A DNA stretch of 64,000 nt, from NCBI RefSeq assembly GCF_032444005.1, contig NC_091284.1, positions 172,112,001-172,176,000 of the forward strand. Reading direction: 5' to 3'. This document shows, piece by piece, positions 6,980 to 64,000 of the stretch (the stretch's first letter is position 1; each line of letters starts with the position of its first letter). The notes under the pieces are model-generated. The model had not been told where the DNA came from and did not search any database. It worked only from the letters and a program-made list of their open reading frames with translations. The translations under genes were made by a program, and so were the position numbers. The stretch is from Ranitomeya imitator (taxonomy: Eukaryota).

Positions 6980-7643
6980 CCTCATATGAACTCGAGCCTG
7001 GGAAAATATTCATAATAGTTCCCAGGCTCGAGTTCATATGAGGACATCCAGCAGAGGGCGCATCACCGCAACTCGAGGTAACTACAGGTCATTCACCTAC
7101 ATTCCATTCATTCGCTGGGTTTCTACAGGCAGGGGCGGCTGCATTAGTAGGCTTCTGCTTGTAAAATTAGTTAACCCTTTCAGATGGATTTACAGCGTGG
7201 GACGAGACTGATCGTCGGAAGGTATGGAATATTGTTGTTTGTTTTGTTTACATTTGTTACAGGTGACAAGGGTCTTCAGGTGGATTACCAGTATAATAAA
7301 ATATTACAACAACCTGTGTATTTATTTCATTAAAATACTTTGTAATAATGTGTGTGTGTGTTTTTTTAACCATTTGATACTATTGGATTAATAATGGAGA
7401 GGTGTCATAAATGACACCTCTCCATTATTAATCTGGCTTAATGTCACCTTACAATAGCAGGGTTACAATAGCAAGGTGACATTAACCCTTCATTACCCCA
7501 TATCCCACAGCTACACAGAAATGGGAAGAGTGTGGCCAAGTGCCAGAATAGGCGTATCTTCCAGATGTGCCCTTTCTGGGGTGGCTGGGGGCAGATGTTT
7601 TTAGCCAGGGGGGGCCAATAACCATGGACCCTCTCCAGGCTAT

Positions 7644-9262: not shown

Positions 9263-9541
9263 TAATATCTGCCCTCAGTCACTGGCTTTACCATTCTGGC
9301 GGAGAAAATTGCGCGGGAGCCCATGCCAATTTTTTCTGCGATTTAACCATTTAATTTAATAGCTAGAGCGCCCAAATTTTGCACATACACACTACTAACA
9401 TTAGTAGTGTGGAATATGCAAAAAAAGGGATATGAGATGGTTTACTGTATGTAAACCATGTCTCATATCATGTCGGGTTTGTGAAGGAGATAGCTTAAAA
9501 GCCGCTAATTCAATTCCCGGCTTTTCCTATCTAGCGCTGTA

Positions 9542-17631: not shown

Positions 17632-19519
17632 CTCCGATCCGGTGGGGGGGAGGCTTTCGAACTTTGTTCTCAGTTTGCAAAATATCTCCAACAGCCCTTG
17701 GGTAGTAAGTGTAATCCAGCAGGGTCTTCTCATAGAGTTCGATGCGCCTCCTCCCAGGATCTTAAGAGTCACCTCCCCGTCATCTCGGGAGACTCAAAAA
17801 CTGATGATGGCAGGAATACAGGACTTACTAGACTCGAGAGCTATTTCCGTGGTCCCGGTAAACGAGCGGGGAAAGGTCACTATTCCCGTATCTTCATGGT
17901 AAAAAAGCCTTCCGGGCAGGCTCGGATTATAATAAATCTAAAAGTTCTCAACAAATACATAACTTACCGCAAATTCAAAATGGAGTCAGTAAAAACAGCC
18001 ATTCCTCTGATAGCTCCTCATTCCTATATGGCGACAATAGATCTCAAAGATGCCTATTTCCATATTCCAATGCATCCTCGCCACAGGAAATACCTGAGAT
18101 TTGCGGTCCAGATCAATCAAAAGGTCCTACACTTCCAATACAATGTTCTTCCCTTCGGCATCTCCTCGACCCCAAGGGTTTTCTCCAGAGTCATGGCAGA
18201 AGCTGTAGATCACATCAGGAACCAAGACGTCGCTATAGTGCCATACTTGGACGACCTTCTAGTAATTGGTCCTTCACCCGAAATTCTCAATCAGAGGATT
18301 TCCAAAACTATGGATATCTTACAGCTTTTGGGTTGGATACCCAATCTAAGCAAGTCCCAACTATTACCATCAAAGGTGATAAAATTTCTCGGAGTCCTTT
18401 TGGACTCGGAAAATCAAAAATCTTTCCTTCCAGAGGAACACCAGAGGAACCTGATATCCAAGATCCTAGACTTCAAAAAACAACGGTCTCCGACTCTGCG
18501 GACTGCAATGTCTCTTCTGGGGTTGATGACGGCCTGTATACAATCAGTCCAGTGGGCTCAAAGCCACTCCAGAGTTCTGCAGACACACATTCTAGGAAAT
18601 TGGAACGGAAATCCAAATTCCTTGAACAGGAGAGTGTACACTCCAGGGAAGGTAAAGGCCTCGTTAACCTGGTGGGCGATCCAAAAAAACCTGCTAAGAG
18701 GAGTAGACTGGATACAAGATCCACTGGTGACAGTGACAACAGATGCCAGTCAAAGAGGTTGGGGAGCAGTTGTCTCGCAGATCCCGTTCCAGGGTCTCTG
18801 GAATCAGAAAGAAAGTTCCAGGTCCTCCAACTTCAGAGAATTGATGGCTGTGGAGAGGGCCCTTCTGGCCTCCAGCAGTCTTATTCTAGGTCAACATGTC
18901 AGAGTTTACAGACAATATCACGACTGTGGCACATCTAAAGCACCAGGGGAGCTCGAAGTTCAATCATTTGAAGACAATATCGAACAGAATTTTTTGCTGT
19001 GCAGAGAAACATCTCCTCTCTCTATCAGCAATACACCTCAAGGGATCCGTAAATACTCATGCAGATCTCCTGAGCCATCGCGACTTGCATCCAAGAGAAT
19101 GGAGCCTGAAGGCGGATGTTTTCAGAGTGTTGACGGACAGATGGGGACTTCCCGACATAGATCTTCTAGCATCAAGCCAGAATGCACAGGTCGAGAACTA
19201 CTTCTCTCTAGACCCCAGAGACAGGTCTCAAGGAGTAGACGCTTTTGCTCATTCTTGGAGATTCCGTCTAGCGTACGTGTTTCCTCCAATACCGTTGCTT
19301 GCAAAGACCCTCCGGAAGATCCGAGACGATCAAGTCCAGACTATTCTAGTAGCTCCGGCATGGCCAAAGAGAAGTTGGTATCACCTCATCAGAGAACTGA
19401 AGGTGGATGGTCCGGTCTTTCTCCAGACATCAGAAGATCTACTCTGCCAGGGCCCCTTTTATCATCCGGAACCGCAAAAGTTCAAGCTGGCAGCCTGGCT
19501 ATTGAAGCCCAGGTATTAA
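17627..19519 (+). pseudogene. pol: DIRS ORF2: RT, RNase H and methyltransferase-like domain, with frameshifts at ~17875 and ~18912
   Basis: IDLKDAYFH, LPFG, YLDDLLV, TTDASQRGWG, NFRELMAV, TDNITTVAHL, DIDLLAS...AYVFPP...LVAPAWPKRSWY. Confidence 0.9.
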
Positions 19520-20481
19520 GAGCTAAAGGTCTCTCGGAATCAGTAATTTCTACTTTACAAAAATCTAGAAAACCTGTCACCAATGCTATATATAGCAAAA
19601 TTTGGAAGAGATTCTCCTCGTGGTGTCATCCTCATAATCCTGACCCTTTCCATCCTAATCACTCTCAAATATTAGACTTTCTACAAAAAGGATTGGAGTT
19701 GGGGCTGAAGCCAAGTACCTTAAAGGTCCAAGTGTCAGCTTTGAGTTCTGTCTTCGACCAAGACCTGGCAGGACATCGTTGGATAAAAAGATTTATGGTT
19801 GCAGCATCAAGGCATTGTCCAAGAAAACAAATCTTTGTGCCATCATGGGACTTAAACATAGTTCTAAAGGGTCTTATGGCTCCTCCATTTGAGCCATTAT
19901 CATCTTGTTCCTCACAGCTTCTGTCCTGCAAGACTGCCTTCTTAGTTGCAATTTCTACTGCAAGAAGAGTGGGGGAAATACAAGCTCTCTCAATCAGAGA
20001 ACCTTATCTTACTATAAGAGACGATTCCATTGAGTTCCGACTAGATCCATGTTTCCTTCCGAAGGTAGTGTCAGAATTTCATCGATCACAGGATATAGTC
20101 CTTCCATCATTCTGTCACAATCCTTCAAACCCGGAACAAACCAAATCCTTCAGAATTGACAAAAATCTCTTCGTTCATCTATCTGGCCGAAACAAGGGCA
20201 AGAAGGTAGCGAAGAGTACCATTGCCAACTGGATAAAGAAGGCCATTACTGAAGCATACCTAGCTCAGAATATTGCAATTCCTGCGGGCCTAAAGGCTCA
20301 TTCCACCAGATCTACTTCCGTCTCTTGGGCTGAAAGGGCTGGCGCTTCAACAGAGCAGATTTGCAGAGCTGCAACATGGTCTTCTCTACACACATTTACT
20401 AAGCATTATAGATTGGACTTCTGGTCCAATCGGGATCTTCCCTTTGGCCGAAAGGTTCTTCAGGCTGTGGTCCCTCCCTAA
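19099..20481 (+). CDS. DIRS ORF3 tyrosine recombinase (overlaps ORF2; apparent internal deletion)
   Basis: Motifs STARRVGEIQAL, AHSTRS and TFTKHY. The HTLDVRR..YL segment present in the second DIRS copy is missing between NPSNPEQ and TKSFRID. Confidence 0.85.
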   Translation: MEPEGGCFQSVDGQMGTSRHRSSSIKPECTGRELLLSRPQRQVSRSRRFCSFLEIPSSVRVSSNTVACKDPPEDPRRSSPDYSSSSGMAKEKLVSPHQRTEGGWSGLSPDIRRSTLPGPLLSSGTAKVQAGSLAIEAQVLRAKGLSESVISTLQKSRKPVTNAIYSKIWKRFSSWCHPHNPDPFHPNHSQILDFLQKGLELGLKPSTLKVQVSALSSVFDQDLAGHRWIKRFMVAASRHCPRKQIFVPSWDLNIVLKGLMAPPFEPLSSCSSQLLSCKTAFLVAISTARRVGEIQALSIREPYLTIRDDSIEFRLDPCFLPKVVSEFHRSQDIVLPSFCHNPSNPEQTKSFRIDKNLFVHLSGRNKGKKVAKSTIANWIKKAITEAYLAQNIAIPAGLKAHSTRSTSVSWAERAGASTEQICRAATWSSLHTFTKHYRLDFWSNRDLPFGRKVLQAVVPP

Positions 20482-20804
20482 ATTCAGAATTGGTTGGCAT
20501 TCCTCCTGTGGCTGTCGTGGAAGGCTGCTAGAGAAAATAGAATTATTCTTACCATTAATTCGGTTTCTAGGAGCCTTCCACGACAGCATTAATTCCCTCC
20601 TGATGTTCTTGGATATTTAGTCTGAGAACCTAAAGGTAACCGGTGCTATGGGTTCAGTTGTAAGTCACTGGTTAATGGGAGGTGGGAGGGGTTTTTAACC
20701 TCTTGTGCTTCCTGTCCCCCATTAGGGTATGGAGACAACCTCCTGTGGCTGTCGTGGAAGGCTCCTAGAAACCGAATTAACGGTAAGAATAATTCTATTT
20801 TCTC

Positions 20805-28620: not shown

Positions 28621-31600
28621 TGTTATGACCTGGTGGTTAGGAGCACCCGGAATCACCTGATAGTTAAACCTCATACAGGATGAGCTCTGGGATGTGGGAG
28701 CTCTGCTGACCGCAAGCCCTAATCCTATCACACACACTAAAAATAGCCGTGGAGCGCTCCTGACCAGACCTAGGCGCCTCGTCACAGCCTAAGAACTATC
28801 TAGAGATAGAAAATAAAGCCTACCTTGCCTCAGAGAAACTCCCCAAAGGTAAAGGAAGCCCCCCACATATATTGACTGTGAGTAAAGATGAAAGTCACAA
28901 ACGCAGAGATGAAACAGGTTTCAGCAAAGGGAGGCCAGACTTACTAAATAGACAGAGGATAGGAAAGGTAACTTTGCGATCAGCACAAAAACCTACAAAA
29001 GACCACGCAGAGTGTGCAAAAAAGACCTCCGCACCGACTCACAGTGCGGAGGGACCACTCTGCATCCCAGAGCTTCCAGCTAGCAAGACAAAATCATGAA
29101 AACCAGCTGGACAAGAAAACAGTGAACAAATAATGACTATCAGGAACTTAGCTTCTGCAGGAGAAGGCAGGTCACCAGAGAGATCCAGGAGCGAACTGAA
29201 CAAATGCAAAAACATTGACAGCTGGCATGGAGTAATGATCTGAGAGGAGTTAAATAGAGCAGCCAACCAAAGGACAACCCACGTCACCTGTGTAAGGAAC
29301 CTCAGAAGCAGCAGCTTCACTCATAGCCACCAGAGGGAGCCCATAGACAGAACTCGCCGAAGTACCACTCACGACCACAGGAGGGAGTTCGACAACAGAA
29401 TTCACAACAGTACCCCCCCCTTGAGGAGGGGTCACCGAACCCTCAGCAGAGCCCCCAGGCCGATCAGGATGAGCCAAATGAAAGGCATGAACAAGATCGG
29501 CAGCATGAACATCAGAGGCAAAAACCCATGAATTATCTTCCTGACCATAACCCTTCCACTTGACCAGGTACTGGAGTTTCCGTCTCGAAACACGAGAATC
29601 CAAAATCTTCTCCACCACATACTCCAACTCCCCCTCGACCAACACCGGGGCAGGAGGATCAACGGAGGGAACCATAGGTGCCACGTATCTCCGCAACAAC
29701 GACCTATGGAACACATTATGGATGGCAAAAGAAGCTGGAAGATCCAAACGAAATGACACAGGATTAAGAACTTCAGAAATCTTATATGGTCCAATGAAAC
29801 GAGGCTTAAACTTAGGAGAGGAAACATTCATAGGAACGTGACGAGATGACAACCAAACCAAATCCCCAACACGAAGTCGGGGACCAACACTACGCCGGCG
29901 GTTAGCGAAACGTTGAGCCTTCTCCTGGGACAATGTCAAATTGTCCACCACATGAGTCCAAATCTGCTGCAACCTGTCCACCACCGCATCCACACCAGGA
30001 CAGTCCGAAGACTCAACCTGCCCTGAAGAGAAACGAGGATGGAAACCAGAATTCAGAAAAACGGAGAAACTAATGTAGCCGAGCTGGCCCGATTATTAAG
30101 GGCGAACTCAGCCAAAGGCAAGAAAGACACCCAATCATCCTGATCAGCAGAAACAAAGCATCTCAGATATGTCTCCAAAGTCTGATTAGTTCGTTCGGTT
30201 TGGCCATTAGTCTGAGGATGGAAAGCCAAAGAAAAAGACAAATCAATGCCCATCTTAGCGCAAAAGGACCGCCAAAACCTCGAAACAAACTGGGAACCTC
30301 TGTCCGAGACGATGTTCTCTGGAATGCCATGCAAACGAACCACATGCTGGAAAAACAATGGCACCAAATCAGAGGAGGAAGGCAGTTTAGATAAGGGTAC
30401 CAAATGGACCATCTTAGAGAAGTGATCACAAACCCCCCAAATGACCGACATCTTTTGAGAAACAGGGAGATCAGAATTAAAATCCATGGAAATATGCGTC
30501 CAGGGCCTCTTCGGAATCGGCAAGGGCAAAAGCAACCCACTGGCACGAGAACAGCAGGGCTTAGCCCGTGCACAAATCCCACAGGACTGCACAAAAGAAC
30601 GCACATCCCGTGACAAAGAAGGCCACCAAAAGGATCTAGCCACCAAATCTCTGGTACCAAAGATTCCAGGATGACCAGCCAATACTGAACAATGAATCTC
30701 CGAGATAACTCTAATAGTCCATCTATCAGGGACAAACAGTTTCTCCGTAGGACAACGGTCAGGTCTATCAGCCTGAAACTTTTGCAGCACACGCCGCAAA
30801 TCAGGGGAAATGGCAGACAAAATTACCCCTTCTTTAAGAATACCCGCCGGCTCCGGAACACCCGGAGAGTCAGGCACAAAACTCCTTGACAGGGCGTCAG
30901 CCTTCACATTCTTAGATCCCGGAAGGTATGAAACCACAAAATCAAAACGGGAGAAAAAGAGCGACCATCGAGCCTGTCTAGAATTCAACCGTTTTTGGCA
31001 GACTCGAGATAAGTTAAATTCTTGTGGTCCGTCAAGACCACCACGCGATGTTTAGCTCCTTCAAGCCAATGTCGCCACTCCTCGAGTGCCCACTTCATGG
31101 CCAACAACTCCCGATTGCCCACATCATAATTGCGCTCAGCAGGCGAGAATTTTCTAGAAAAGAAGGCACAGGGTTTCATCACCGAGCCATGAGAACTTCT
31201 TTGCGACAAAACAGCCCCTGCTCCAATTTCAGAAGCATCAACCTCCACCTGAAAAGGAAGCGAAACATCTGGCTGGCACAACACAGGGGCAGAAGCAAAA
31301 CGACGCTTCAACTCCTGAAAAGCCTCTACAGCCGCAGAGGACCAATTGACCACATCAGCACCTTTTTTGGTCAAATCAGTCAACGGCTTAGCAACACTGG
31401 AAAAGTTAGTGATGAAGCGACGATAAAAATTAGCAAAGCCCAGGAACTTCTGCAAGCTCTTCACAGATGTCGGCTGAGTCCAATCGTAAATGGCCTGAAC
31501 TTTAACAGGGTCCATCTCGATAGTAGAAGGGGAAAAAATGAAACCCAAAAATGAAACCTTCTGAACACCAAAGAGACACTTTGACCCCTTCACAAACAAG

Positions 31601-34395
31601 GAATTCGCACGAAGGACCTGGAACACCATTCTGACCTGCTTCACATGAGATTCCCAATCATCCGAAAAGACCAAAATGTCATCCAAATATACAATCATGA
31701 ATCTATCCAGGTACACTCGGAAGATGTCATGCATAAAGGACTGAAACACAGATGGAGCATTAGAAAGCCCAAATGGCATAACCAGGTACTCAAAATGACC
31801 CTCGGGCGTATTAAATGCTGTTTTCCATTCATCACCCTGTTTAATTCGCACAAGATTATACGCACCACGAAGATCTATCTTGGTGAACCAACTAGCCCCC
31901 TTAATCCGAGCAAATAAATCAGACAGCAGCGGCAAAGGATACTGAAATTTGACTGTGATCTTATTAAGAAGGCGGTAATCAATACAAGGTCTCAAAGAAC
32001 CATCCTTCTTGGCCACAAAAAAGAACCCTGCTCCCAATGGTGACGACGACGGGCGAATATGACCCTTCTCTAAGGATTCCTTTACATAACTCCGCATAGC
32101 AGCGTGCTCTGGCACAGATAAATTAAACAGACGGCCCTTAGGAAACTTACTACCAGGAATCAAATCAATAGCACAGTCGCAATCCCTATGAGGAGGTAGG
32201 GCACCAGATTTGGGCTCTTCAAATACATCCCGGTAATCTGATAAAAACTCAGGGACTTCAGAAGGAGTGGAAGGTGAAATTGAGAGCAATGGAACATCAC
32301 CATGTACCCCCTGACAACCCCAACTGGACACAGACATAGATTTCCAATCCAACACTGGATTATGGACCTGTAGCCATGGCAACCCCAAAACGACCACATC
32401 ATGCAGATTATGCAACACCAAAAAGCGAATATCCTCCTGATGTGCAGGAGCCATGCACATGGTCAATTGAGTCCAGTACTGAGGCTTATTCTTGGCCAAA
32501 GGCGTAGCATCAATTCCTCTCAATGGAATAGGATACTGCAAGGGCTCCAAGAAAAAACCACAGCGCCTGGCAAACTCCAAGTCCATCAAATTCAGGGCAG
32601 CGCCTGAATCCACAAATGCCATTACAGAATAGGACGACAGAGAGCAAATCAGAGTAACGGACAAAAGAAATTTAGACTGTACCATACCAATGGTGGCAGA
32701 CCTAGCGAACCGCTTAGTGCGCTTAGGACAATCGGAGATAGCATGAGTGGATTCACCACAGTAAAAACACAGCCCATTCCGACGTCTGTGTTCTTGCCGT
32801 TCAGCTCTGGTCAAAGTCCTATCACACTGCATAGGCTCAGGCCTATGCTCAGAGAATACCGCCAGATGGTGAACAGCTTTGCGCTCACGCATGCGCCGAT
32901 CGATCTGAATGGCCAAAGACATAGACTCATTCAGACCAGCAGGCGTGGGAAATCCCATCATGACATCCTTAAGGGCTTCAGAAAGACCCTTTCTGAAAAT
33001 TGCCGCCAGGGCACATTCATTCCACTGAGTAAGCACAGACCACTTTCTAAACTTTTGACAGTACACCTCCATTTCATCCTGACCCTGACACAAAGCCAGC
33101 AAGATTTTCTATGCCTGATCCACTGAATTAGGTTCATCATTAAGCAATCCAAGTGCCAGAAAAAATGCATCAACATCACGCAATGCAGGATCTCCTGGCG
33201 CAAGGGAAAATGCCCAGTCTTGAGGGTCACCACGCAACAAAGAAATAATGATTTTTACCTGTTGAACAGGGTCACCAGAGGAGCGGGGTTTCAAAGCTAG
33301 AAACAGTTTACAATTATTTTTGAAATTCAAGAACCTAGATCTATCCCCAGAAAATAAGTCAGGAATAGGAATTCTAGGCTCTAACATAGGATTCTGAACC
33401 ACAAAATCTTGAGTGTTTTGTACCCTTTCAGTGAGATGATCCACACAAGAGGACAGACCTTGAATGTCCATGTCTACACCTGTGTCCTGAACCACCCAAA
33501 GGTCTAGGGGAAAAGAAAGACAAAACACAGTGCAAAGAAAAAAAATGGTCTCAGAAGTTCTCTTATCCCTCTATTGAGATGCATTAATACTTTGGGCCAG
33601 CTGTACTGTTATGACCTGGTGGTTAGGAGCACCCGGAATGACCTGATAGTTAAACCTCATACAGGACGAGCTCTGGGATGTGGGAGCTCTGCTGACCGCA
33701 AGCCCTAATCCTATCACACACACTAAAAATAGCCGTGGAGTGCTCCTGACCAGACCTAGGCGCCTCGTCACAGCCTAAGAACTATCTAGAGATAGAAAAT
33801 AAAGCCTACCTTGCCTCAGAGAAACTCCCCAAAGGTAAAGGAAGCCCCCCACATATATTGACTGTGAGTAAAGATGAAGGTCACAAACGCAGAGATGAAA
33901 CAGGTTTCAGCAAAGGGAGGCCAGACTTACTAAATAGACAGAGGATAGGAAAGGTAACTTTGCGATCAGCACAAAAACCTACAAAAGACCACGCAGAGTG
34001 TGCAAAAAAGACCTCCGCACCGACTCACGGTGCGGAGGGACCACTCTGCATCCCAGAGCTTCCAGCTAGCAAGACAAAATCATGAAAACCAGCTGGACAA
34101 GAAAACAGTGAACAAATAATGACTATCAGGAACTTAGCTTCTGCAGGAGAATGCAGGTCACCAGAGAGATCCAGGAGCGAACTGAACAAATGCAAAGACA
34201 TTGACAGCTGGCATGGAGTAACGATCTGAGAGGAGTTAAATAGAGCAGCCAACCAAAGGACAACCCACGTCACCTGTGTAAGGAACCTCAGAAGCAGCAG
34301 CTTCACGCATAGCCACCAGAGGGAGCCCATAGACAGAACTCGCCGAAGTACCACTCACGACCACAGGAGGGAGTTCGACAACAGAATTCACAACA
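28621..34395 (-). mobile_element. Full-length Ty3/Gypsy chromovirus (Tf1/sushi-like)
   Basis: ~789-bp LTRs at 28621-29409 and 33607-34395, with TG...CA ends and ~9 mismatches by eye. G-run PPT at ~29413-29420. AGAATG duplicated at both flanks. Confidence 0.96.
29250..33528 (-). pseudogene. pol: Gypsy gag-pol: Gag, CCHC, protease, RT, RNase H, integrase and chromodomain; one in-frame stop (~33110) and two frameshifts (~30988, ~30050)
   Basis: CFYCGESTHAISDC, FVDSGA, YLDDILV, VDASEIGAGAVL, HCSVLAGHPG..CGIC, SDRGSQF, YVVEKILDSR..YLVKWKGY. Confidence 0.93.
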
Positions 34396-47959: not shown

Positions 47960-48610
47960 AAAAAGTAATTCTGGTGTTTTGACTTTTTTTTATCACTACG
48001 CCGTTTAGTGATCAGGTTAATCCTTTTTTTATTGATAGATTGGTTAATTCTGAACACGGCCATACCAAATATGTGTGGGCTTGATTCTTTTTTATCGTTT
48101 TAGTTTGAATGGGGCAAAAGGGGGGTGATTTAAACTTTTATTTTTTTTAAAACATTTTTTTTACTTTTGCCATGCTTCAATAGTCTCCATAGGAGACTAG
48201 AAGCTGGCATAACTTGATCGGCTCAGCTACATAGAGGCGATGTTCAGATCGTCTCTATGTAGCTGAATTACTGAGCTGCTATCAGCGCAGACCACTGGGT
48301 GGTGCTCATAGCAATCCCACACTGACAGCCATAGAGGTCTCAAAGAGACCTCTGGTTGTCATACTGATGCACCGATGTCACCCGATCATGTGACTGGGGT
48401 CACGGATGTGCATATTTCTGGCCCGATGGCCGTAAGCATGATTTAAATGCCGCTTTCAGAGTTTGACATCAACATTTAGCTAGTTAATAGGCGCAGGTGG
48501 ATCAAAACAGCTGACATGTCCCGGCTTAGATGTAGGCTCACCACCGGAGCCCACATCAAAGCGGGGAATACTGGCAGCGGCATATTAGTACGTCTGATGT
48601 CAGTAAGGGG
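47960..48610 (+). mobile_element. Right end of a TTAA-type (piggyBac-like) non-autonomous element
   Basis: Ends GTCAGTAAGGGG|TTAA. 47975-48150 resembles 14350-14520. Confidence 0.6.
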
Positions 48611-48659
48611 TTAAATAAATGGTCTTTACAGACAGTCTGGATTCAGCAAGATTGGAGAG

Positions 48660-51213
48660 AGGAGTCGGCTCAAGTGGCTTTGTGTCTGCATCGTCCGGAT
48701 CTGAATAAACAGTTCTTGCTTGAGGTGGACGCATCCTCATTAGGGGCTGGAGCTGTGCTTATGCAGAAGTCCTCCTTGGGTCTCTGCGTGTCCTGCGGCT
48801 TCTTATCCAAGGCCTTCTCCACTTCTGAACGGAAATATTACATTGGGGACTGGGAATTGCTCGCCGTTAAGATGGCTCTGGGGAAGTGGCATTACCTGCT
48901 GGGCGCAGATATTATCCAGTAGTGATCTACACGGACAATAAGAATCTGGCATATCTCCAGTCCGCTCAGAGACTAAATCCTCGCCAAGCCAGGAGGTCTT
49001 TGTTTTTTGTCTGCTTTAACTTTCTTTTGCATTTTAGATCCGGTGACAAGAATATCAGAGCTGATGCCCTTTCTCTCTCATTTCTGTCTGGGGACCAAGA
49101 GGAGGATCCTCAATTTATCACTGAACCCTCTAAGATGGTTACGGTCACCCCTATCTGCCTGTCGCAAGTTCCTCCACCATTGTGGGTGAATCTGAGAAGG
49201 AGCGAGTTTTGTCTTGGGGTCACTCCTCCAAGGTGGCTGGTCACGCGGGACAAAGGAGGACATTACAATTGATCTCTTGTCATTACTGGTGGCCATCCAT
49301 TAGGAAGGAGATCTATGTCTATGTGGATGCCTGTCCGACGTGTGCCCGCAATAAAATTCCTAGACAATTTTCTACCGGTCCTCTCCTGCCACTGCCTGTA
49401 TCATCCGTTCCTTGGCAGCACATTATGGATTTGCCAGTTTCTGAGGGTTGCACCGTGATCTGGGAGGTCATGGATCGCTTCTCTAAAATGACGCATTTTA
49501 CCCCATTGTCTGCTCTTCCGTCCTTTCCTGAATTGGCCGTCAGCTTCATTAAGCATATTTTCTGCCTGCCTGGATTTCCTCGCCCAATCGAGTTTACTTC
49601 CAGATTCTGGCGAGCACTCTATAAACATTTGGATTTTGTCTTGGACTTCTCCTCGGCTTATCACCCTCAGTCCAATGGACAAGTGAAGTGTGTCAACCAG
49701 GTCCTGGGCAACTACCTGCGACACTTCATCAATGCCCACCATAATGATTGGGTGAAATTACTTCCCTGGGCTGAGTTCTTGTATAACAATCTATGGCAAG
49801 TTGTCATTCTGCATTGTGTTCGGTCGGCAACCCAAGATTCCTCTTCCAGTGATGGTTCCTTCTGATGTTCCTGTAGCAGATGTCCTTTCCAAGGATTTTG
49901 TGAAGATGTGGGAGGACACCAGAGTCACGTTAGAAGTGTCCTCGGTTCTATGAAGAGACATGAAGACAAGAGGTGTCTGGACCTTCTGTGCTTCCATTGT
50001 GGAGACAAGGTATTGCTTTCATCCAGGTACGTCTGGCTGAAGATCCCTTCTTACAAGTTGGGTCCTCATTTTATCGGGCCTTTCGAGGTGTTGAAGCGGA
50101 TTAATGAGGTCTCCTATAACTTGAAGCTGCCTCCTTCTCTGCGGATTCCAAATTCCTTTCATGTATCCCTACTGAAGCCAGTCATCCTAAGTCCCTTCTT
50201 CAAGGATCCCAGTACCACACCCATGCCAACAGCCTCGGATGATGTTTTTGAAGTGGAGAACATCTTGGCCATGAAGAAGGTGAGAGGCAAGACCTTCTTC
50301 CTTGTTGACTGGAAGGGATTTGGTCCTGGAGAGATGTCCTGGCAGCCCAAGAAGAATATCCACGCTCCGATTCTTCTCCGGAACTTCATCGATGGCCTGA
50401 AGAGGAGGGGGCGTAAAGGGTGGGTATTGTTAGCATCACGCTGGCTTCCTGGCATGTCAGTTCATTCACCTGTGCTGCAGTTGGTCCCCCTCCCTCTCAT
50501 GCTTCGCATGCTCCCAGCAGCATTTCCAGCCGGGCCTCTGGACATGTTCTAAGGGTGCACAAGTGCACGCTCTCACCCTCTTAAAGGTCCAGCGCATGCA
50601 CTTGCTATTTCCTCCCCAGCCAATGGTTTTGAGGCATTATCAATATATTGCTTCCTCTCCACTGAGGAGGTGCCTGAGCAACCTTCCTGTTACAGTCTGT
50701 TGTGTAAAATTGCATACCAGTGCAAATCCTGCTTACTGTACTCTTAACTACAAATCCTGCCTGCAGTACTCTAAGTACCAATCCTGCCTGCTGTACTCCA
50801 AGAGCAAATCCTGCTTGCTGCACTCCATAGCAAATCCTGCTTGCTGCACTCAGAAGTCAATCCTGCATTCTGCACTAAGAAGCAAATCTTGCTTGTTGCA
50901 CTCAGAAGCCAATCCTGCATGCTGCACTCAGAAGCAAATCCTCCTTGCTGCACTCAGTAGCAAATGCTAGCTGCATTCAGACGCAAACTCTGTCTCTGAT
51001 ACAAGCTCTGCCTGCTGCTCCACCCAGTCTGTCTTTCGGGTCCAGCTGCTGCGCAACCGTTGGTCTGCCCTTGAGTGGTACCTGGCATTCATCGGGAGCC
51101 AAGACTAACCTCACCATCAGAGGCTCTAGTGAATAGTCAGGTGATCGCTTAGTCGCCCCTCCAGGCTCTCCACGGTCCGTGGTACAGTGGTTCCACAAAC
51201 CTCATTCGTGACA
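48660..51213 (+). mobile_element. Degenerate, 5'-truncated Gypsy chromovirus (RNase H, integrase, chromodomain) with its 3' LTR at ~50428-51213
   Basis: [61 protein letters not shown] purine tract precedes TGTTAG, and the LTR ends GTGACA. Confidence 0.88.
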
Positions 51214-51811: not shown

Positions 51812-52794
51812 CGTCGACATGTCAGCCACGGGTAAAATAAGCAAGCGGCCATGCTACCTCCTTAGACAAAAATGAAACTGACAACATTTCATGTATAGGC
51901 AAATTGCTAAAAAGGCCGATGTATTTTAAGACGGATTTAACCCCTTAACGACCGCCGGTACGCCTTTTAACGGCGGAAGTTAAGGGATTTTCTCTGGGGT
52001 CTCGGTTGCCAGGGGTAACCGAGACCCCAGAGAACATGATTTGGGTCGGTTTTTACTGACCCCCGGGGTTGCGATCGCCGGTTAATAACCGTTTACCGGC
52101 AGCCACAAAAAAAACCCAAAACTCGATTTCCCATTTAATTTCTCTGTCCTCCAATGTGATCGCACATCAGAGGACAGAGAATTGGTGTCCCCCATAGCTC
52201 CCCGATACTCACCCGTCTCGCCCGATGCTCCTCATGGCTCCCGATGTGCGCCGCCATCTTTTTTCGGGAAAAAAATGGTGGGCACATGCGCAGTGCGCCC
52301 GCTGGCGGCACCCGGCAGATCTTTGGGGTCTCGGCTGCCGGGGGTAGCTGAGACCCCAAAGAACATAATCGGGGTTGGTTTTTATCGAACCCTCTTTTGC
52401 GATCGCCGGTAAATAACCGCTTACCGGCGATCGCTAAAAGAAAAAAAAAGTGGCGTGTCATTCTCTGTCCTCTGATGTGATCGCACATCAGAGGACAGAG
52501 AAATAAGGGGATCAGGGACCCTGTTACACTTACCGGTGTCCCTTGGTCCTCCTGTGTCCCCTCCTGGCCGCCGGCTTCTTCCTCCGGGAAGAAAATGGCG
52601 GATTCATGCGCAGTGTGCCCGCTGTGATCTGACGGCCGGCAGAAGAAGATTCTTTCTCTTGTTTTATTTTGGTCACTGTGAGATCCTATCACAGTAATCA
52701 AAATAAAAAAATAGTAAATAACCCCCCTTTATCACTCCTTTAGTAAGGAAAAAATAATAAAATAAAAAAGGTATGTATTTCTATTTGGAAATTG

Positions 52795-53400
52795 GGGTCA
52801 GGGCTAGGGTTAGGGCTAGGGTTAGGGTTGGTGCTAAAGTTAGGGTTAGGGTTGGGGCTAAAGTTAGGGTTAGGGTTGGGGCTAAAGTTAGGGTTAAGGT
52901 TGGAGCTAAAGTTAGGGTTAAGGCTAGGTCTAGGGTTGGTGCTAGAGTAAGGGTTAGGATTGGGACTAAAGTTAGGGCTAGGATTAGGGTTGGTGCTAAT
53001 GTTAGGGTTAGGGTTGGGGCTAAAGTTAGGGTTAGGGTTGGTGCTAGGGTTAGGGTTAGGTTTTGGGCTAAAGTTAGGGATCGGGTTGGGGCTAGGGTTA
53101 GGGTTGGGGCTGAAGTTAGGGTTATGGTTGGGGCTAAAGTTAGGGTTAGAGTTGGGATTAGGGTTAGAGTTGGGATTAGGGTTTGGATTAGGGTTAGGGT
53201 TGGCATTAGGGTTAGGGTTGGCATTAGGGTTACATTTGGGATTAGGGTTAGGTTTGGGATTAGGGTTAAGGTAAGGGTTGAGATTAGGGTTAGGTTTGAG
53301 GTGAGGGTTGAGATTATGATTAGGGGTGTGTTGTGTTTAGGGTAGGGTTGGGATTAGGGTTAGGGGTGTTTTGGGGTTAGGGTTTTGATTAGGGTTATGG
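52795..53400 (+). repeat. Telomere-like array: variant (TTAGGG)n with a ~24-bp higher-order unit GGGGCTAAAGTTAGGGTTAGGGTT
   Basis: Direct inspection; degenerates towards the 3' end. Confidence 0.9.
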
Positions 53401-56118: not shown

Positions 56119-59100
56119 AGGTTTTATATAAAAAACACACTGGCGCTAAACCCTCTGAAATAAAAGGTAGAAAAAGAGAGCTGCTGGAATTTAGACAGAG
56201 GCTGTGCGTACCTCTGTCAGTTATATGAAATTAAATAATAAATCGAAAATACCGTGCTGCAAAAGATGATAAATTGAATGACCCAAGGTACACACAGAGT
56301 CACCAATTGTACTGTAAACTGTTTCTAGAGAAATCAGTCCGTCTGATAGCTAATCCAGGTACCTATTACACATAAAAATGTGAGTCCGCTTTTAAGGAAC
56401 TGTACTAATTATATGTTCGTTCCGTTGCTACTTGTATATTTTTAGGTAATCCACGTACCTTCTAGATGTCTGGCAGATGAGGGGTTACCCAACATAGGTG
56501 CACACCGTCATCCCGGGTGACTGAAGGTGTTGCTGCAAAGTATGTTGCTGGGCGAGGGAACACTGCGCGTGTATCACCCAGGGGTTATGTGATAGGTGGA
56601 GAGAACTGCCGCTACGTGCAGAGCCAGAGACGTCCCGGACGGTGGCATCCCTGGTTACATGACAAGGAAAAAAATGGCCGACGCTTCTCGGCCGCTCGAT
56701 CGCTTGTGACGTCACCGGTCTACGGAGCCTGATTAGGACCAAAAAACCAACGCATTTCTAAGTGAGTCGCACTTCTTCGTCGTGGTTACGGCTCCCTATC
56801 GGTCACTTCATTTATATAGTATAACCGGCAAGTCACCTGCCTACCACAATTAACCCTGTGTATAACCAAACTATATTTTCACCTACTAGGGGAGTAGCTT
56901 AGTGCGTTCCCTAATTATATTGGATACTTAGTTAACAAATTAAAATATAACTTTATTATACTACAAATGTAAATCATTAAAAACTGAAATTGATTCTAAA
57001 ATATAAATATTCTTAAAAATGCCTGTTAATTTAGATTTCTCTGGATGTGGCCCTTTGTATTAATACATATCAGGCTAATTATGCCTGTAATTTATTTGCA
57101 ATTTGTTACACTTCTAAAATGGTCATTATAATAATGATGATAATTGTACTACCACCAGCATCTTTTTATTAATTTATATTGCCAATTATACTGGTGGTAT
57201 GAAAAATGATCATAATAATAATAATGTTAGTTCCACCTTACAGAGATGTCAGTCATCTATAACAGAGTACATCCTGGTATATTTCATTCTACAGTAGTTC
57301 ACTTTACTACAGGTAGTCCTTAGAAAGCATACAGCTCCAGTTCAGAATTGAGACCTTTAGGAACTAGACTATCTAAGATAAAAATCCATTCGGATTCCCT
57401 TCTGGACATTTGTTTAATAAAATCCCCCCTCTCCAAGTTTGGTGTACCACTTGAATTCCACAGAATTGGACACCTTTAAATGATTGTTGATGTTTTTCTT
57501 TAAAATGGCGGGAGAGGGGGTGTCCCATAAAAGCTTTTAAAATATTCTTACAGTGTTCTTTCATACGTTCACTGAGCTTTCGTTTCGTGTGGCCCACATA
57601 AAGCTTTTTGCATGGACATTGGATTATATAGATGACTCCCTTGGAGTTTCAGGATATATGGTCTTTAATAATAAATTCATTAGTCCCGTTCATATCTGAA
57701 AATTTTGATTGCCTTGTTTTCTTAAAAGTGGTATGTGTGCATGCAAAGCAAGCCCCACAGGGTAAAAATCCAGTTCTCGCTTTATCCTTCGTCACTGGGT
57801 TATTGTCTGTTCTCGTGTGGGTCATTCTCATTGTGGGGGCTATAAGATGGCCCAGCGATTGAGTTTTTCTATATACAAATCTGGGGTTATTGGGGAAAAA
57901 TTCCCCTACTACCTTATCCTTTTTTTAAATTGGCCAATGTCTCTGTATGATGTTGACAAATTTTTTGTATCCTGCATGGAACTGTGTAATGAATGGTAGT
58001 GTTAAAATTTGTTCCTGCAGGTTCACATTTTCAACACCATGCGTCCTATCATTGCGGTTATCATTCCTATTATTACTACTGTTTTTCATCACCAGGGACT
58101 CTCTTGATATAAGGGCTACATCCTTTTGTGCTTTTTCCAACAATGGTCTCGGGTATCCTTTATCAATAAACTGTTGTGATAGATGGTTGGCTTCCCTATT
58201 GTAATCTACCATGTTGGAACAATTATGTCTTATCCTGGTGAATTGACTTTTGGGTATGTTGGTTAGCCATATCGGGAGGTGGCAGCTGGTGATGTGAATG
58301 AAACTGTTAGAATCCACCTCCATTCGATGGCACTTGGTGCATAACTGATTGTGTTCAACATAGATATTTAAGTCCAGAAAATTAACGTTAGTCGTACTAA
58401 TATTGGGTGTAAATTCTAGACCATATTGATTGTTATTAAGGCTTGAAATAAAAATGTTTAAATCAATTTGGGAGCCTTCCCATATAAATAAAATGTCGTC
58501 TATTAACTGACGCCACATGACTAGGCCTGGGTGTAATTGTCCTGCAGATTGGATGTGGGACTCCTCTCATTTGGCAACATATAGATTTGCATAACTTGGT
58601 GCGAACCGCATCCCCATTGTGGTTCCCCACGTCTGTAGGTAGTGTTGGCCTTCATATAGAAAGTAATTATGCTATAATATAAATTTGATGCAATCTAGAA
58701 TATATTGGATTTGTATTGGGGTATATGTGCCAAGGGTGCTAAGAAAATAACCTGCTGCTTGGCAGCCTTTTCCATGAATAATGACTGTATATAATGATTT
58801 AATATCTAGAGTACCTAGTATATATCCATCATTCCATTTTATTCCCTCTACAATTTCCAGCGTGTGGCCTGTGTCTTTTAGGTATCCTGGAATTAATTTC
58901 ATGCATTTCTGCAAGTGTACATCCACATATCGGGATAAAGGGATAAATTGGCTGTTAAGTTATTGATCCCAGATATGATAGGCCTGCCGGAAGGACATGT
59001 CTTATTTTTATGTAACTTGGGGATGTGATAGAAAATCACTTAACTAGGATTTTTATTCAAGATATAATGGAACTCCTTCTTGTTCAAAATCCCTAAGGAT

Positions 59101-60079
59101 TTACCTTTTTGAGCTAGAATATTTAATTTGCTGATATACTGAATAGTGGGATCGTGATTTAATTTTTTATACGTGATCTGATCATCTAAAAGTCTAATGG
59201 ATTCCTGATGGTACATGGATTGATCAAGGATCACAATACCCCCACCTTTATCTGCCGGTCTAACGACTAGATCATGATTGGTTTGTAGATCTTTAATTGC
59301 CTTTCTTTCCTGGGGATTCAAATTATGCGGTGCGTATTTTAGGTTCTTCATGTGACGGGGTGTACGGCAGAGCAAGAAGGGACAACAGGCCGAGGGATGA
59401 TTCAACAGATTTATTATCAAGAACGCTGGAACAACACATGCAGGTAGATCTACAGAGTCCACAATTAGTCCAACAGAACAGGTTCGGGGGCATCTCCAGA
59501 TAATCCTTGTGCCAGCTAACAAAGCAATAGTCCACACGAGTCCAAGGGATCCCAAAACAATCCCACGAGCGACGAGATATGTCCTCAGCTCAAGTCTCGC
59601 CCCATTCGCTTCCGCAGTCACAGATGGACATGGGGTCTTGCCTCAGCTAAGAATCCCCACTCCTTCTCCTACAAGGATCAACTCACATCTGATCTCAAAA
59701 TAAGAATGGATTGTCTGAGCTCCTGGGATCCGCCCATGAAGGGGGGTAGGGGTCACACCTTCTATTCAATGGTTGGGTCCACCAGAAGATTCTAGACTGG
59801 TGGGCTCCACATAGTCTATGTAGTATGTACATTTGACTAGCCAGTGGCCACCTGCTGTGAGGAAGAATTGCTATTCCTCCACTAGTGATGTTGACAAAGC
59901 TTAATTACATTAGAGCTGAGGGCTGCAAGTATTGGGGGAAGGAGACATATTGTTACAGGTGAACTCCCAGCACAATTAAATACATAAATTACAGCTAATA
60001 GAAACCAGAGAACAGTTACATACATCAAATGGCATATTATTCAAATACAGGACAGGGCAAAAGTACATATCATGACAAT

Positions 60080-60092
60080 CCCTTCCCCTCCC
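60080..60092 (-). promoter_or_regulatory. Polypurine tract
   Basis: GGGAGGGGAAGGG, 2 nt upstream of the 3' LTR on the minus strand. Confidence 0.85.
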
Positions 60093-60168
60093 AATTTGTG
60101 TACGTACCAGGGACCTCTACAGGTTGCTGGTTAAGTACACACAGGCAGAGCGTAACTTACATGTGGCT

Positions 60169-62103
60169 TCATGCAGCCACAAATTGGCATCGTAGCTCTC
60201 CCACATCATTGCCCAGGAGAACATCTGCAGGCAGACCACCCATCACCCCAACCACACATCGCCTGACCCCAAAACCAAAGTTCAGATCCACAGTGGCTGT
60301 GGGAATAGTCCTCCATTGTCCACCAGCCAGTTCAATGACAATCCCAGGTCCTCGATGGATTGCCTCAGGCCGAACCACTCGGGGATCAGCCAGTGTGAGG
60401 AAAGCCCCTGAGTCACAAAATCCAATAAGTCTCTGTCCATCCAGCATGACCTCCTGCAAGTGCTTACCTCGATGTGCAGAAGTCATCATAGCTGCATGTC
60501 GCACACCATAAACTCCTAGTGGTGCAACATGGGTGGGTGAGGCACAAGGCCAGTCCTCCCGTAGTGGTGACACGTCGTCCTCCTTGGCACTTGGCTGTAC
60601 ATAATTAATAATACGACTGGGTACAGGATCAATCCTCATTTGAACAGCTGGGCAGGAGGCTTGCAGATGCCCCGGCTGTCCACATCGATAGCATCTGTGC
60701 TGGGTCTCACTCCATCCAAGGCGTCCTCTTGGGCGAGGGGTAAGGGAACCTGGAGGCCGGCCCCCACCTGAAGGTGCTATAGGGTTTTGAGGACGACTCC
60801 TCCATGGGCTGGCTGGGCATGAGGCCTGCAGATGCCCCAGATGCCCACAACCATAACACCTGCGCTCTGCTACTTCCTCTCCTCGTCGTATTCCAGAAAA
60901 CGCAGTAGAAGCAACTGGAGGCACATTTACACGGGTATCAGCATGAGGTGGTGGCTTAGAGGAACGGGGAACAATGGGGACAGAAGAACAGGGGGCCACC
61001 GGTGTTGTGGAGCTGGTAGGCCTCTCTCCATCCTCCAACAGAATCCTCCACTGAGGCTTGATGGTGAGAGCCTCATCAGCTAGAGCTGCAGCTTCCTCCA
61101 CAGTGGCTGGTCTCCTTTCATGCACCCATTCCCGGATCTCAGCAGGGCACTTGAAGTAAAACTGCTCTTTTAGGATAACCTGGAGGAAGGTCTCCCAGGT
61201 TAAGGCCCCCTCTGCCTCCAGCCAGTGGCGACATATCTGTTTGAGTCTGTGGGCATACATCTTGAAAGACACTTCCTCATCACAGGCTAAAGTACGGAAC
61301 TGAGTCTTGTAAGTGTCTGGGGTAACAGCATAATGTTCTAGAATAGTCCGTTTAATCTCCGCATACTCACAGTTCCCCTGAGGGTCCATAGCTCTATAGG
61401 CTGCGGCAGCTCCACCCTCTAAGAGCCCCACCAGATGTCGGACTCGGTCCCTTTCTGGGACTTCCATTAATCGACACTGAAGCTCAAAGTCCTGGAAGAA
61501 GCCCTCAATGTCGCCTACAGCCTCATTAAAGGGCTTGAAGTCTTTGCGGGACACTCTGGGGAGTTCCCTCATGGTGGGTGCTGGGGTTAGAGTCTGTCTG
61601 GAGCTTCTAGCTGCTTCCAAAGCGATCTGCCTCTCCAGCAATGCCATCTCCTGAGCTCTGTCCTCGGCTCTGTGAATGGCCTCCCTCTCCTCGGCTCTGT
61701 GAATGGCCTCCCTCTCCTCGGCTCTGTGAATGGCCTCCCTCTCCCTCTCCTCGGCTCTGTGAATGGCCTCCCTCTCCCTCTCTTGAGCTCGGTGAATGGC
61801 CTCTTTCTTATAGTCTATGGTGGCCTCTTCGTCCAGCAATGCCAACTCCTCCTCGTACCACATAACCCACTGACTTTTTTGGGTATTTACCTCCGGCTGC
61901 AGTCTTTCCTCCATTTGCTGTGAGGATCCTTCCTCAGCGTCATCTTGCAGGCGAACTCCTTCCAAAGCCTCAATAAGCTGCTCCTCGGAGAGTCCCTTAA
62001 AGCGGACTCCTACTTCACGGGCCTTTGATTGTAGGCTCCCCAAAGTCCAGTTCTTGTACTCTGCGGTGTTGGTTCCCGATGTTGATGGGCCTTTGTCCTC
62101 CAT
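60169..62103 (-). CDS. gag: Gag-protease polyprotein (644 aa from the first internal ATG): N-terminal helical motif, coiled-coil repeats, capsid with SCAN-like region, two CCHC knuckles, aspartic protease
   Basis: Uninterrupted frame with (REAIHRAEE)n, FFQDFELQC, ILKEQF..IREWVHERRPATVEEAAALAD, CYGCGHLGHLQASC, CYRCGQPGHLQASC, FCDSGA and LLGNDV. Confidence 0.9.
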   Translation of the reverse strand: MEDKGPSTSGTNTAEYKNWTLGSLQSKAREVGVRFKGLSEEQLIEALEGVRLQDDAEEGSSQQMEERLQPEVNTQKSQWVMWYEEELALLDEEATIDYKKEAIHRAQEREREAIHRAEEREREAIHRAEEREAIHRAEEREAIHRAEDRAQEMALLERQIALEAARSSRQTLTPAPTMRELPRVSRKDFKPFNEAVGDIEGFFQDFELQCRLMEVPERDRVRHLVGLLEGGAAAAYRAMDPQGNCEYAEIKRTILEHYAVTPDTYKTQFRTLACDEEVSFKMYAHRLKQICRHWLEAEGALTWETFLQVILKEQFYFKCPAEIREWVHERRPATVEEAAALADEALTIKPQWRILLEDGERPTSSTTPVAPCSSVPIVPRSSKPPPHADTRVNVPPVASTAFSGIRRGEEVAERRCYGCGHLGHLQASCPASPWRSRPQNPIAPSGGGRPPGSLTPRPRGRLGWSETQHRCYRCGQPGHLQASCPAVQMRIDPVPSRIINYVQPSAKEDDVSPLREDWPCASPTHVAPLGVYGVRHAAMMTSAHRGKHLQEVMLDGQRLIGFCDSGAFLTLADPRVVRPEAIHRGPGIVIELAGGQWRTIPTATVDLNFGFGVRRCVVGVMGGLPADVLLGNDVGELRCQFVAA

Positions 62104-62117
62104 TCCTTCTGCTCTGG

Positions 62118-62134
62118 TCCCACTGCTGCCACCA
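62118..62134 (-). promoter_or_regulatory. Primer-binding site complementary to the tRNA-Leu 3' end
   Basis: TGGTGGCAGCAGTGGGA, 3 nt after the 5' LTR. It matches the complement of vertebrate tRNA-Leu ...UCCCACCGCUGCCACCA with one mismatch (recalled sequence, not searched). Confidence 0.8.
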
Positions 62135-62731
62135 GTTTGTGACGGGGTGTACGGCAGAGCAAGAAGGGACAACAGGCCGAGGGATGATTCAACAGATTTA
62201 TTATCAAGAACGCTGGAACTACACATGCAGGTAGATCTAGAGAGTCCACAATTATTCCAACAGAACAGGTTCGGGGGCACCTCCAGATAATCCTTGTGCC
62301 AGCTAACAAAGCAATAGTCCACACGAGTCCAAGGGATCCCAAAACAATCCCACGAGCGACGAGATATGTCCTCAGCTCAAGTCTCGCCCCATTCGCTTCC
62401 GCAGTCACAGATGGACATGGGGTCTTGCCTCAGCTAAGAATCCCCACTCCTTCTCCTTCAAGGATCAACTTACATCTGATCTCAAAATAAGAATGGATTG
62501 TCTGAGCTCCTGGGATCCGCCCATGAAGGGGGGTAGGGGTCACACCTTCTATTCAATGGTTGGGTCCACCAGAAGATTCTAGACTGGTGGGCTCTGCTTA
62601 ATCTATGTAGTATGTACATTTGACTAGCCACCTGCTGTGAGGAAGAATGGCTATTCCTCCACTAGTGATGTTGACAAAGCTTAATTACATTAGAGCTGAG
62701 GGCTGCAAGTATTGGGGGAAGGAGACATATT

Positions 62732-62909
62732 AACATAGTAACATAGTAACATAGTTAGTAAGGCCGAAAAAAGACATTTGTCCATCCAGTTCAGCCTATA
62801 TTCCATCATAATAAATCCCCAGATCTACGTCCTTCTACAGAACCTAATAATTGTATGATACAATATTGTTCTGCTCCAGGAAGACATCCAGGCCTCTCTT
62901 GAACCCCTC
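62732..62909 (-). mobile_element. Very short (~180 bp) CR1 3' stub inserted in one LTR
   Basis: Near-identical to 9085-9262. Flanked by duplicated ATATT (62727-62731 and 62917-62921). Absent from the other LTR (empty site at 59946-59955). Confidence 0.93.
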
Positions 62910-64000
62910 TCTTGAAATATTGTTACAGGTGAACTCCCAGCACAAGAAAATACATAAATTACAGCTAATAGAAACCAGAGAACAGTTACATACATCAAAT
63001 GGCATATTATTCAAATACAGGACAGGGCAAAAGTACATATCATGACACTTCATATTGTATTTCCTGACATCTCTGGATACAAACATGTCAAAAGAATGAA
63101 AGGCACTTGAGTATTCATGAATTGGATTAAATGTTGATGGATTGGCCAGAGAAGTGTGTACAAATTCTGATGTATTGTACTGCCTATGGTTAGTTGGTAC
63201 TCGCTCCTTTTTTATAAAGTATTTTTTGAGTGATAGATTACGTAGATACTTTTTCATACTAATATATAAATTAAATGGTTTTGCTTCTCTGGTTGGGGCG
63301 AACATCAATCCTTTTTGTAGGAGGGAAATTTCATTATCTGTTAATTGGTGAGAGCTCAGGTTATACATTTGTTGAGAATAATTCATTATTCTGTTTGCTT
63401 TCTTTTTGGAGAATTTCCCCCCTCTTTTCCCTCTTTTAGTTTTTGTTTTGAGGGTACGACCCGAAAAAAATCCCGATTGATTTGTTGTTGGGTTAATGCT
63501 CCCCTATTGTTTTTGTATGTTGAGATGGTTCTGTTAGTGTTCCTGTTTGTCGAATTTTGGATATTTCTACCCACATCCCCATTCATTTGTGGGTTTTGAA
63601 CAATGAGGGGTCTATTCGCCACCCCTTAATTTGTCATGGAGGTGTCCTTTCTATTGGTTTTATGTTTACTGGTTGGTGCTGCATTTTTATTCAGTTCGCT
63701 AACTGATTCAGTGTCCTCCACCTGAAATGTTCAAGGCAGATACCTGTTAGTTGACCAAATAGAAGTGTTCACATATTCATTGTATTGTAATGAAGTATTG
63801 GGGGGTCCATCGTTTGGGGTATATGGATACACTGGGGACTTGAGCGCGGCATATAATGCTGGGTTTGAGGAACTTTCCTTGGTTCGACTTGTTTTTTTTC
63901 CTCCTCATGTAACCAGGGATGCCACCGGCTGGGACGTCTCTGGCTCTGCACGTAGCAGCAGTTCTCTCTGCCTATCGCACAACCCCTGGGTGATACACGC

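Follow-up and report, generated by a model that had tools for sequence, protein, structure and literature searches.

Long terminal repeat (LTR) retrotransposons that have shed the enzymes of pol and kept gag are already known from plants. The wheat family Fatima (TREP3198) is described as encoding gag and an aspartic protease (PR) without reverse transcriptase (RT), RNase H (RH), or integrase (IN) (PMC3129301). The pol-less TR-GAG elements likewise keep gag (PMC4350172) and are reported to transpose (PMC8704663), and wheat RLG_Quinta has been proposed to supply Gag to Cereba, a partner that has just one open reading frame (ORF) (PMC11302176). The element described here occupies positions 59351–63047, on the minus strand, of a 64,000-nt stretch of the genome of the frog Ranitomeya imitator (NC_091284.1, 172,112,001 to 172,176,000; hereafter the window, whose numbering is used throughout), and it brings this design into the Gmr1 clade of vertebrate Gypsy elements. 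It is quite probably an ageing copy of a multi-copy frog Gag-PR family that likely borrows its enzymes from full-length relatives. Like Fatima, it is Gypsy-type, multi-copy, and retains gag and protease; unlike that plant family, which has a second ORF and an autonomous partner with 91% identical LTRs, it is a vertebrate Gmr1 element with one ORF. With TR-GAG it shares a length under 4 kb, LTRs, a primer-binding site (PBS), a polypurine tract (PPT), one gag ORF, and mobilization in trans, the last presumed here. Those elements were, however, selected for having no protease similarity, and the complete protease sets the frog element outside TR-GAG in the strict sense. Quinta differs as a plant element with GAG and an unknown domain. 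The small size, single gag ORF, cis signals, several copies, and lack of RT, RH, and IN are together those of a gag-keeping non-autonomous element. No pol-less Gag-PR family among vertebrate Gmr1 elements was found in a literature search to which Repbase, Dfam, subscription journals, and supplements did not belong, and such families may stand in repeat databases as consensus entries.

Animal systems approach the same content by other routes. A spliced Gag-PR isoform of Drosophila copia is reported to process itself and to form capsids (PMC11835246, PMC5580714). The Gag-plus-protease product and the single-ORF PR-IN-RT-RH parent are common to both cases, whereas copia, an autonomous Ty1/copia element, makes its short form as an RNA isoform, and in the frog the short form has become a separate family at the DNA level. 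PEG10 and RTL3 are described as keeping a metaviral capsid and protease without intact pol (PMC10516033), but they are host genes in which a frameshift precedes PR; the frog element reads PR in frame and is a young multi-copy repeat with intact LTRs. The Xenopus elements 1A11 and Xretpos are multi-copy LTR elements without pol homology, 1A11 encoding a Gag-like protein (PMC4585706). Their description sets them apart, since the missing homology includes protease and the portion of that report available here mentions no link to Gmr1 or SCAN. Gmr1 elements have the order PR-IN-RT-RH, and SCAN is described as the Gmr1 capsid's C-terminal domain (bioRxiv 10.1101/2025.03.03.638093); about 200 Gmr1 copies, over half with SCAN, are recorded for Xenopus tropicalis (PMC4131045). 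Further background is found in PMC8892269 and PMC4079200.

Anatomy of the element and copies of its trimmed form

The element has TG..CA LTRs, a PBS-like run, a PPT, and CTTCA on either flank, as expected of an LTR retrotransposon, and lacks the IN, RT, and RH that an autonomous element would carry. An earlier reading of the DNA, made from the letters alone (the sequence-only reading), had listed both LTRs, a 5-bp target-site duplication (TSD), a PBS, and a PPT, together with a lone 644-aa ORF closing CQFVAA* just past the protease and about 75 bp between stop codon and PPT. These parts were all recovered, at 59346–63052, with the ORF running from 62103 to 60169 and the stop codon lying 76 bp from the PPT and 91 bp from the LTR; a 185-bp fragment of a long interspersed nuclear element (LINE) within the 5′ LTR had been overlooked. 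The tRNA identity stands aside from this agreement: the PBS-like run at 62119–62134 may match tRNA-Leu, and a tRNA gene search of the 64-kb window gave none. The LTR pair differs by 13 substitutions over 719 aligned sites (Kimura two-parameter distance, K2P, 0.018) and one 7-bp indel, where about a dozen substitutions and the same indel had been noted. A tblastn comparison of eight integrase- or pol-bearing Gmr1 proteins with the element gave no IN, RT, or RH match below E 0.2, in keeping with the claim that these are all gone. The features are:

59346–59350, unstranded: left TSD copy, 5 bp (CTTCA), read from the sequence
59351–60077, minus: 3′ LTR, 727 bp, TG..CA, with AATAAA at 59415–59410
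60079–60092, minus: PPT of 14 nt, set off by 1 nt from the 3′ LTR
60093–60168, minus: spacer of 76 bp from stop codon to PPT, without similarity to pol and crossed by contigs from sequencing runs X1, X9, and X17
60169–62103, minus: single Gag-PR ORF, 644 aa (P0001), Gmr1 clade, ending CQFVAA*
60172–60468, minus: aspartic protease, aa 546–644, DSG at 564–566, last residue adjoining the stop
60652–60693, minus: CCHC zinc knuckle 2, aa 471–484
60817–60858, minus: CCHC zinc knuckle 1, aa 416–429
61051–61323, minus: second capsid lobe, SCAN-like, aa 261–351
61324–61569, minus: first capsid lobe, aa 179–260
61600–61818, minus: predicted long helix or coiled coil, aa 96–168, with an expanded tandem repeat
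61933–62073, minus: N-terminal helix-extension-helix, Rho_N-like, aa 11–57, a weak assignment
62119–62134, minus: PBS-like run starting TGG, 3 nt from the 5′ LTR
62138–63047, minus: 5′ LTR, 910 bp with the LINE fragment included, TG..CA
62732–62916, minus: truncated LINE 3′ end, 185 bp, in the 5′ LTR close to its 5′ end
63048–63052, unstranded: right TSD copy (CTTCA)

A word search for the element interior listed 24 public sequencing runs; 20 hold the interior, 18 with half or more of the sampled words, and the holders come from 10 studies, some with contig sets of just 4–6 Mb. Contigs of four runs (X1, X3, X9, and X17) were compared in detail. In three of them, which represent three studies and two organism codes and carry letters that differ from the window copy, the stop codon, spacer, and PPT are crossed unbroken (60048–60761 in X1, 60049–60594 in X17, 59919–60495 in X9). 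Against the window copy, 13 of the listed contigs, all from the interior, show 106 differences over 6892 sites (about 1.5%), and among 12 of the 13 rows the only ORF gaps are of 3 and 6 bases, none frame-breaking. None of the loose-end rows seen falls within 60078–60254. Beyond the LTR end, X1 and X3 go on with at least 255 letters of other DNA, which may represent other insertions or solo LTRs, and the closest pieces, 82–94% identical, belong to R. imitator gene models from four different contigs. The element is a multi-copy family in its trimmed form, and a one-off deletion is very unlikely. The earlier claim that the family transposed in a streamlined form is borne out by the common junction, which it had proposed as a check, and by the other LTR flanks. 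It had taken the TSD as demonstration of integration as a unit; a TSD alone is no proof of this, because a later deletion would leave it intact, and it is the common junction in other copies that shows it.

Flanks of the element have almost no cover in the four runs and were not used as evidence. No RNA run is among the holders listed, and X17 as RNA is a guess only. Metagenome scans returned 598 pattern matches by protein, none confirmed, and 0 by junction motif. At the gag 5′ end (61966–62121), X1, X9, and X17 each show two contig variants, which suggests at least two subfamilies. A loose end of X9 at 61407 resembles a diverged sister gag. At 61327, in the capsid region, X1 and X9 (two organism codes) share one foreign AT-rich loose end, perhaps an old insertion in one shared copy.

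Domains, descent, and parallel short forms

Profile and fold comparisons place the ORF with Gmr1 Gag and protease. A Pfam scan of the ORF identifies SCAN in the second capsid lobe (E 2.4e-14), a lobe that also matches SCAN domains in the PDB, and zf-CCHC. Single-domain searches add Ty3_capsid in the first capsid lobe (E 0.007) and gag-asp_proteas in the protease (E 0.009), both weak. The full-length protein scan missed the protease, which was seen only with the isolated domain and by fold; all three profiles that the sequence-only reading had named for checking (SCAN, zf-CCHC, and aspartic protease) were in this way matched, the last as a single domain. AlphaFold, given an alignment of 90 rows, models the domains with confidence, the predicted local distance difference test (pLDDT) score being above 90 in the first capsid lobe; a poor single-sequence capsid model (pLDDT 55) was left out of the fold searches. 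In VIA comparisons, aa 541–644 match retropepsins (Z 10.9, root-mean-square deviation (rmsd) 4.2, 98 aligned), aa 258–351 match the PEG3 SCAN domain (Z 9.6, rmsd 3.4, 92 aligned), and aa 179–260 match the capsids (CA) of PEG10 (Z 9.0) and Rous sarcoma virus (Z 8.8); aa 182–349 together match dArc1 (Z 8.7, rmsd 9.0). Foldseek returned, among the matches listed, proteases only (retropepsins), and the modeled protease is complete, with a retropepsin fold. The N-terminal segment, aa 11–57, gives Z 6.7 (rmsd 2.4, 47 aligned); a weak Rho_N Pfam match (E 0.008) was found on P0003, a Dendrobates relative. The two zinc knuckles are an internal duplication of 55 bp, 82% identical, that is absent from P0003 and from the relatives P0018, P0019, and P0020.

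These last three, Rhinoderma darwinii XP_075697048.1 (P0018) and Xenopus P0019 and P0020, are the nearest full-length relatives. Each has one ORF that encodes Gag, PR, IN, and RT, and P0018 has RNase H as well. P0018 (1481 aa, in a cluster of 9) is 48% identical to the ORF over aa 180–644 and identical at 65 of 99 protease residues, and the element nests with it in a CA+PR tree (support 100/97). A SCAN-like lobe followed by PR, and grouping with PR-IN-RT-RH elements, are the marks of Gmr1 descent; the suggestion of a Gmr1-type element with a SCAN-like capsid finds support in Pfam, VIA, and the tree alike. Full-length Gmr1 elements share the SCAN-like capsid, CCHC motif, and protease; the window element differs in lacking IN, RT, and RH, in its doubled zinc knuckle, and in its expanded coiled-coil repeat. 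Its stop falls where P0018, P0019, and P0020 read on with VTR into the integrase linker.

Comparable multi-copy Gag-PR proteins that end just past the protease are annotated in Dendrobates, Xenopus, Pseudophryne, and Bufo. The Dendrobates P0003 cluster has 16 members, at least 14 of which (14 of the 15 listed), one of them from Ranitomeya variabilis, share a single end point 54 aa beyond PR; six 606-aa Dendrobates copies lie 1–3 residues apart. In X. tropicalis P0191 (3 members) and in five of six Pseudophryne corroboree members, PR is joined in frame to the C-terminal motif of RNase H, a tail comprising the last 13–15 residues, and three Bufo gargarizans proteins end 39 aa past PR. Placed on a CA+PR tree of 26 rows, the five short forms call for four changes, at least three of them forced by strong branches. 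Both a single clade of short forms (approximately unbiased test, p-AU 1e-49) and a grouping of the window element with P0003 and P0191 (p-AU 0.019) are rejected; the two groupings were fixed before the tree was inspected, and two unlabeled gene models were left out of the count. From this tree the trimmed design appears to have arisen several times, at least three, in frogs. The four other short forms, with the records XP_073442515.1, XP_017948839.1, XP_063775447.1, and XP_044146655.1, are protein annotations and could be products of spliced gene models; in the case of P0003, a frameshifted pol could follow. An apparent common splice point about 18 residues past VTR was dropped, Leptobrachium P0039 being a truncated model of an integrase-bearing element. 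Two or more capsid or SCAN-like units occur in each of P0052, P0079, P0083, P0092, P0099, P0101, P0104, and P0154, either as gene-model fusions or as tandem capsids.

Selection, origin, and propagation

The intact frame had been read as a hint of selection or domestication, and here the numbers fit drift instead. With half the LTR divergence applied, the ORF should have gathered about 17.5 substitutions, and the neutral chance of no stop is 0.45–0.50 for substitutions alone and 0.08–0.20 with one or two LTR-like indel events. Among the 40 of 134 difference rows seen, 20 lie in the ORF and comprise 7 synonymous and 13 non-synonymous changes, against a neutral expectation of 24–29% synonymous (P=0.25); some of these changes hit capsid positions that P0003 and P0018 have in common. 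The 7:13 count and these capsid changes make the window copy look like an ordinary ageing insertion. At the level of these sequences its unbroken ORF is no evidence for selection on this copy, and a sample so small leaves room for moderate constraint on it. The lineage presents another picture: against P0003 the capsid lobes are identical at 74/82 and 83/91 residues and PR at 69/99, and two linkers at 19/60 and 16/59. Capsid identity of 90% against 27–32% in the linkers is, as far as an alignment can tell, a sign of purifying selection in the lineage.

How the family arose and what its ORF does for it can be read in other ways. The short form could be the integrated reverse transcript of a spliced Gag-PR RNA from a single-ORF Gmr1 parent, with no deletion in DNA or by template switching, a reading compatible with a mobile family. 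The stop lies exactly at the PR boundary where full-length relatives continue with VTR, P0191 and five of six P. corroboree members fuse PR in frame to the end of RNase H, and Gmr1 is, like copia with its reported spliced Gag + PR isoform (PMC11835246), a single-ORF PR-IN-RT-RH element. The joints, however, differ among families (0, about 7, and about 25 residues past PR), and an RNase H tail is present in two families and not in the window element, whereas one conserved splice site predicts more uniform joints. Splicing is on balance an unlikely source; the differing joints fit independent deletions under selection to keep PR. Less likely still is that the family spreads in trans by its cis signals alone, like a terminal-repeat retrotransposon in miniature or a large retrotransposon derivative, with an ORF that is young and still open. 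The 7:13 count in the window copy, the changes at capsid sites common to P0003 and P0018, and a frameshift in the gag of P0002 suit such a passenger, but at least three independent losses keep the whole protease with D(S/T)G and drop everything beyond it. The near identity of the six 606-aa Dendrobates copies and the listed contigs with their 3- and 6-base gaps speak against it as well.

Recruitment as a host gene or as a restriction factor against the parent, in the manner of PEG10, Arc, or Drt2, is improbable. The Gag-PR content recalls PEG10, the folds match the capsid lobes of PEG10, Arc, and Drt2, and the ORF is unbroken. Yet a domesticated gene would be a single fixed locus with decayed cis signals, and here the LTRs (just 1.8% diverged), PBS, PPT, and TSD are intact, the locus lies inside another transposon, copies are many, and the differences fit drift. 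Nothing in the present data shows a host function; the window element reads as a mobile family and not as a domesticated gene. The remotest alternative is a one-off loss of pol at this locus after insertion, or an assembly artefact. The TSD cannot speak against such a deletion, and the parent has not been seen, but the same junction in contigs of three runs, with other letters, makes it very unlikely.

The preferred reading remains that of a family mobilized by its full-length relatives. A full-length parent would have shed the segment that reaches from the end of PR nearly to the PPT. The 5′ LTR would then drive a trimmed RNA that is translated into Gag-PR, and this protein would cut itself, co-assemble with the Gag-Pol polyprotein of the partner, and package its own RNA, with tRNA-primed reverse transcription and integration carried out by the partner's enzymes. 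Retention of Gag and PR is understandable on two grounds: from a single ORF the parent produces Gag and Pol in a 1:1 ratio, so that surplus self-maturing Gag would be useful, and Gag tends to package its own coding RNA. This copy would have inserted into a Penelope-like element about 3.7 million years (My) ago, and a LINE would later have struck its 5′ LTR.

Several observations weigh against this account. Of the 101 loose-end rows and the 1294 contig pieces, the comparisons cover 24 and 32, respectively. Contigs of X1 and X17 extend only 30 and 29 letters into the LTR and that of X9 more than 31, the listed X3 contig begins at 60182 and misses the stop codon, and no TSDs of other copies were seen in the contigs of the four runs. 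Rare variants are lost from contigs, and there may thus be copies that carry pol. The apparent purifying selection on the capsid may predate the loss of pol and stem from autonomous ancestors. A pol-bearing partner with matching LTR ends or PBS did not emerge from a protein search, in which no dendrobatid protein of at least 1128 aa was among 3 matches from 8000 scored candidates, a weak negative.

The family shows that vertebrate Gmr1, the proposed source of SCAN, can shed pol yet keep a capsid and a complete protease. RT-based annotation overlooks such families in large frog genomes. The short forms are a natural test of how single-ORF elements gain excess Gag and of the first step toward gag domestication, and they provide structural studies with a native SCAN-type capsid of two lobes; the repeated retention of the whole protease across frogs is the part most worth following. 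It is conceivable, though doubtful, that frog Gmr1 elements repeatedly spawn a Gag-PR "second genome segment," possibly an integrated copia-like spliced RNA, that gives surplus self-maturing capsid of a kind its parent is unable to produce. Parent and short form would then make up a two-part retroelement and stand, as a living intermediate, between the gag of Gypsy elements and domesticated genes of the SCAN or PEG10 type.

Insertion site and other elements of the window

Excision in silico of the element and one TSD copy brings a host frame back into register over 645 nt with no internal stop. This host, at 57373–59345 and 63053–63503 on the minus strand, reads as a decayed Penelope-like element; motifs in 57373–59350 are presumably RT-like and GIY-YIG-like, a Pfam scan of the host gave no match, and an ESM Atlas search with the right flank of the element gave none. 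The LINE fragment at 62732–62916 has its own 5-bp duplication, is 96.6% identical to 9087–9263, and is inferred to sit in the U3 region of the 5′ LTR, where it arrived later than the LTR element itself. It matches the end of an RT-bearing LINE at 7605–9263, and all four public runs examined cover it at very high read depth. The K2P of 0.018, at a yearly rate of 2.5e-9 substitutions for each site (bioRxiv 10.1101/2023.11.06.565769), dates the insertion of the LTR element to about 3.7 My, which may be too high because six of the 13 LTR changes are clustered.

The window holds further mobile DNA. A chromodomain Gypsy (PR-RT-RH-IN-SH3-chromo) at 28621–34395, minus strand, is not related to the Gmr1 element and was rejected as a pol donor for its RT-RH-IN order and its other LTR end. 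Its LTRs are 98.9% identical (9 of 789 positions differ) and the coding region is broken into four pieces, which agrees with the one stop and two frameshifts that the sequence-only reading had set beside its closer LTRs. A second, decayed chromodomain Gypsy pol (RH, IN, SH3, chromo) lies at 48536–50552, plus strand. At 16347–20481, also on the plus strand, a DIRS-like element carries a LAP2alpha-like ORF, RT, RNase H, a weak tyrosine recombinase match, and a 949-aa open frame, with inverted repeats at 15665–15772 and 20662–20769. The 630-nt inverted repeats at 11251–12653, 99% complementary and 143 nt apart, read as a young foldback element or one resembling a miniature inverted-repeat transposable element. 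A degenerate TTAGGG-like array at 52749–53351 stands amid satellite units of about 390 bp, which are also found at 1–1300.

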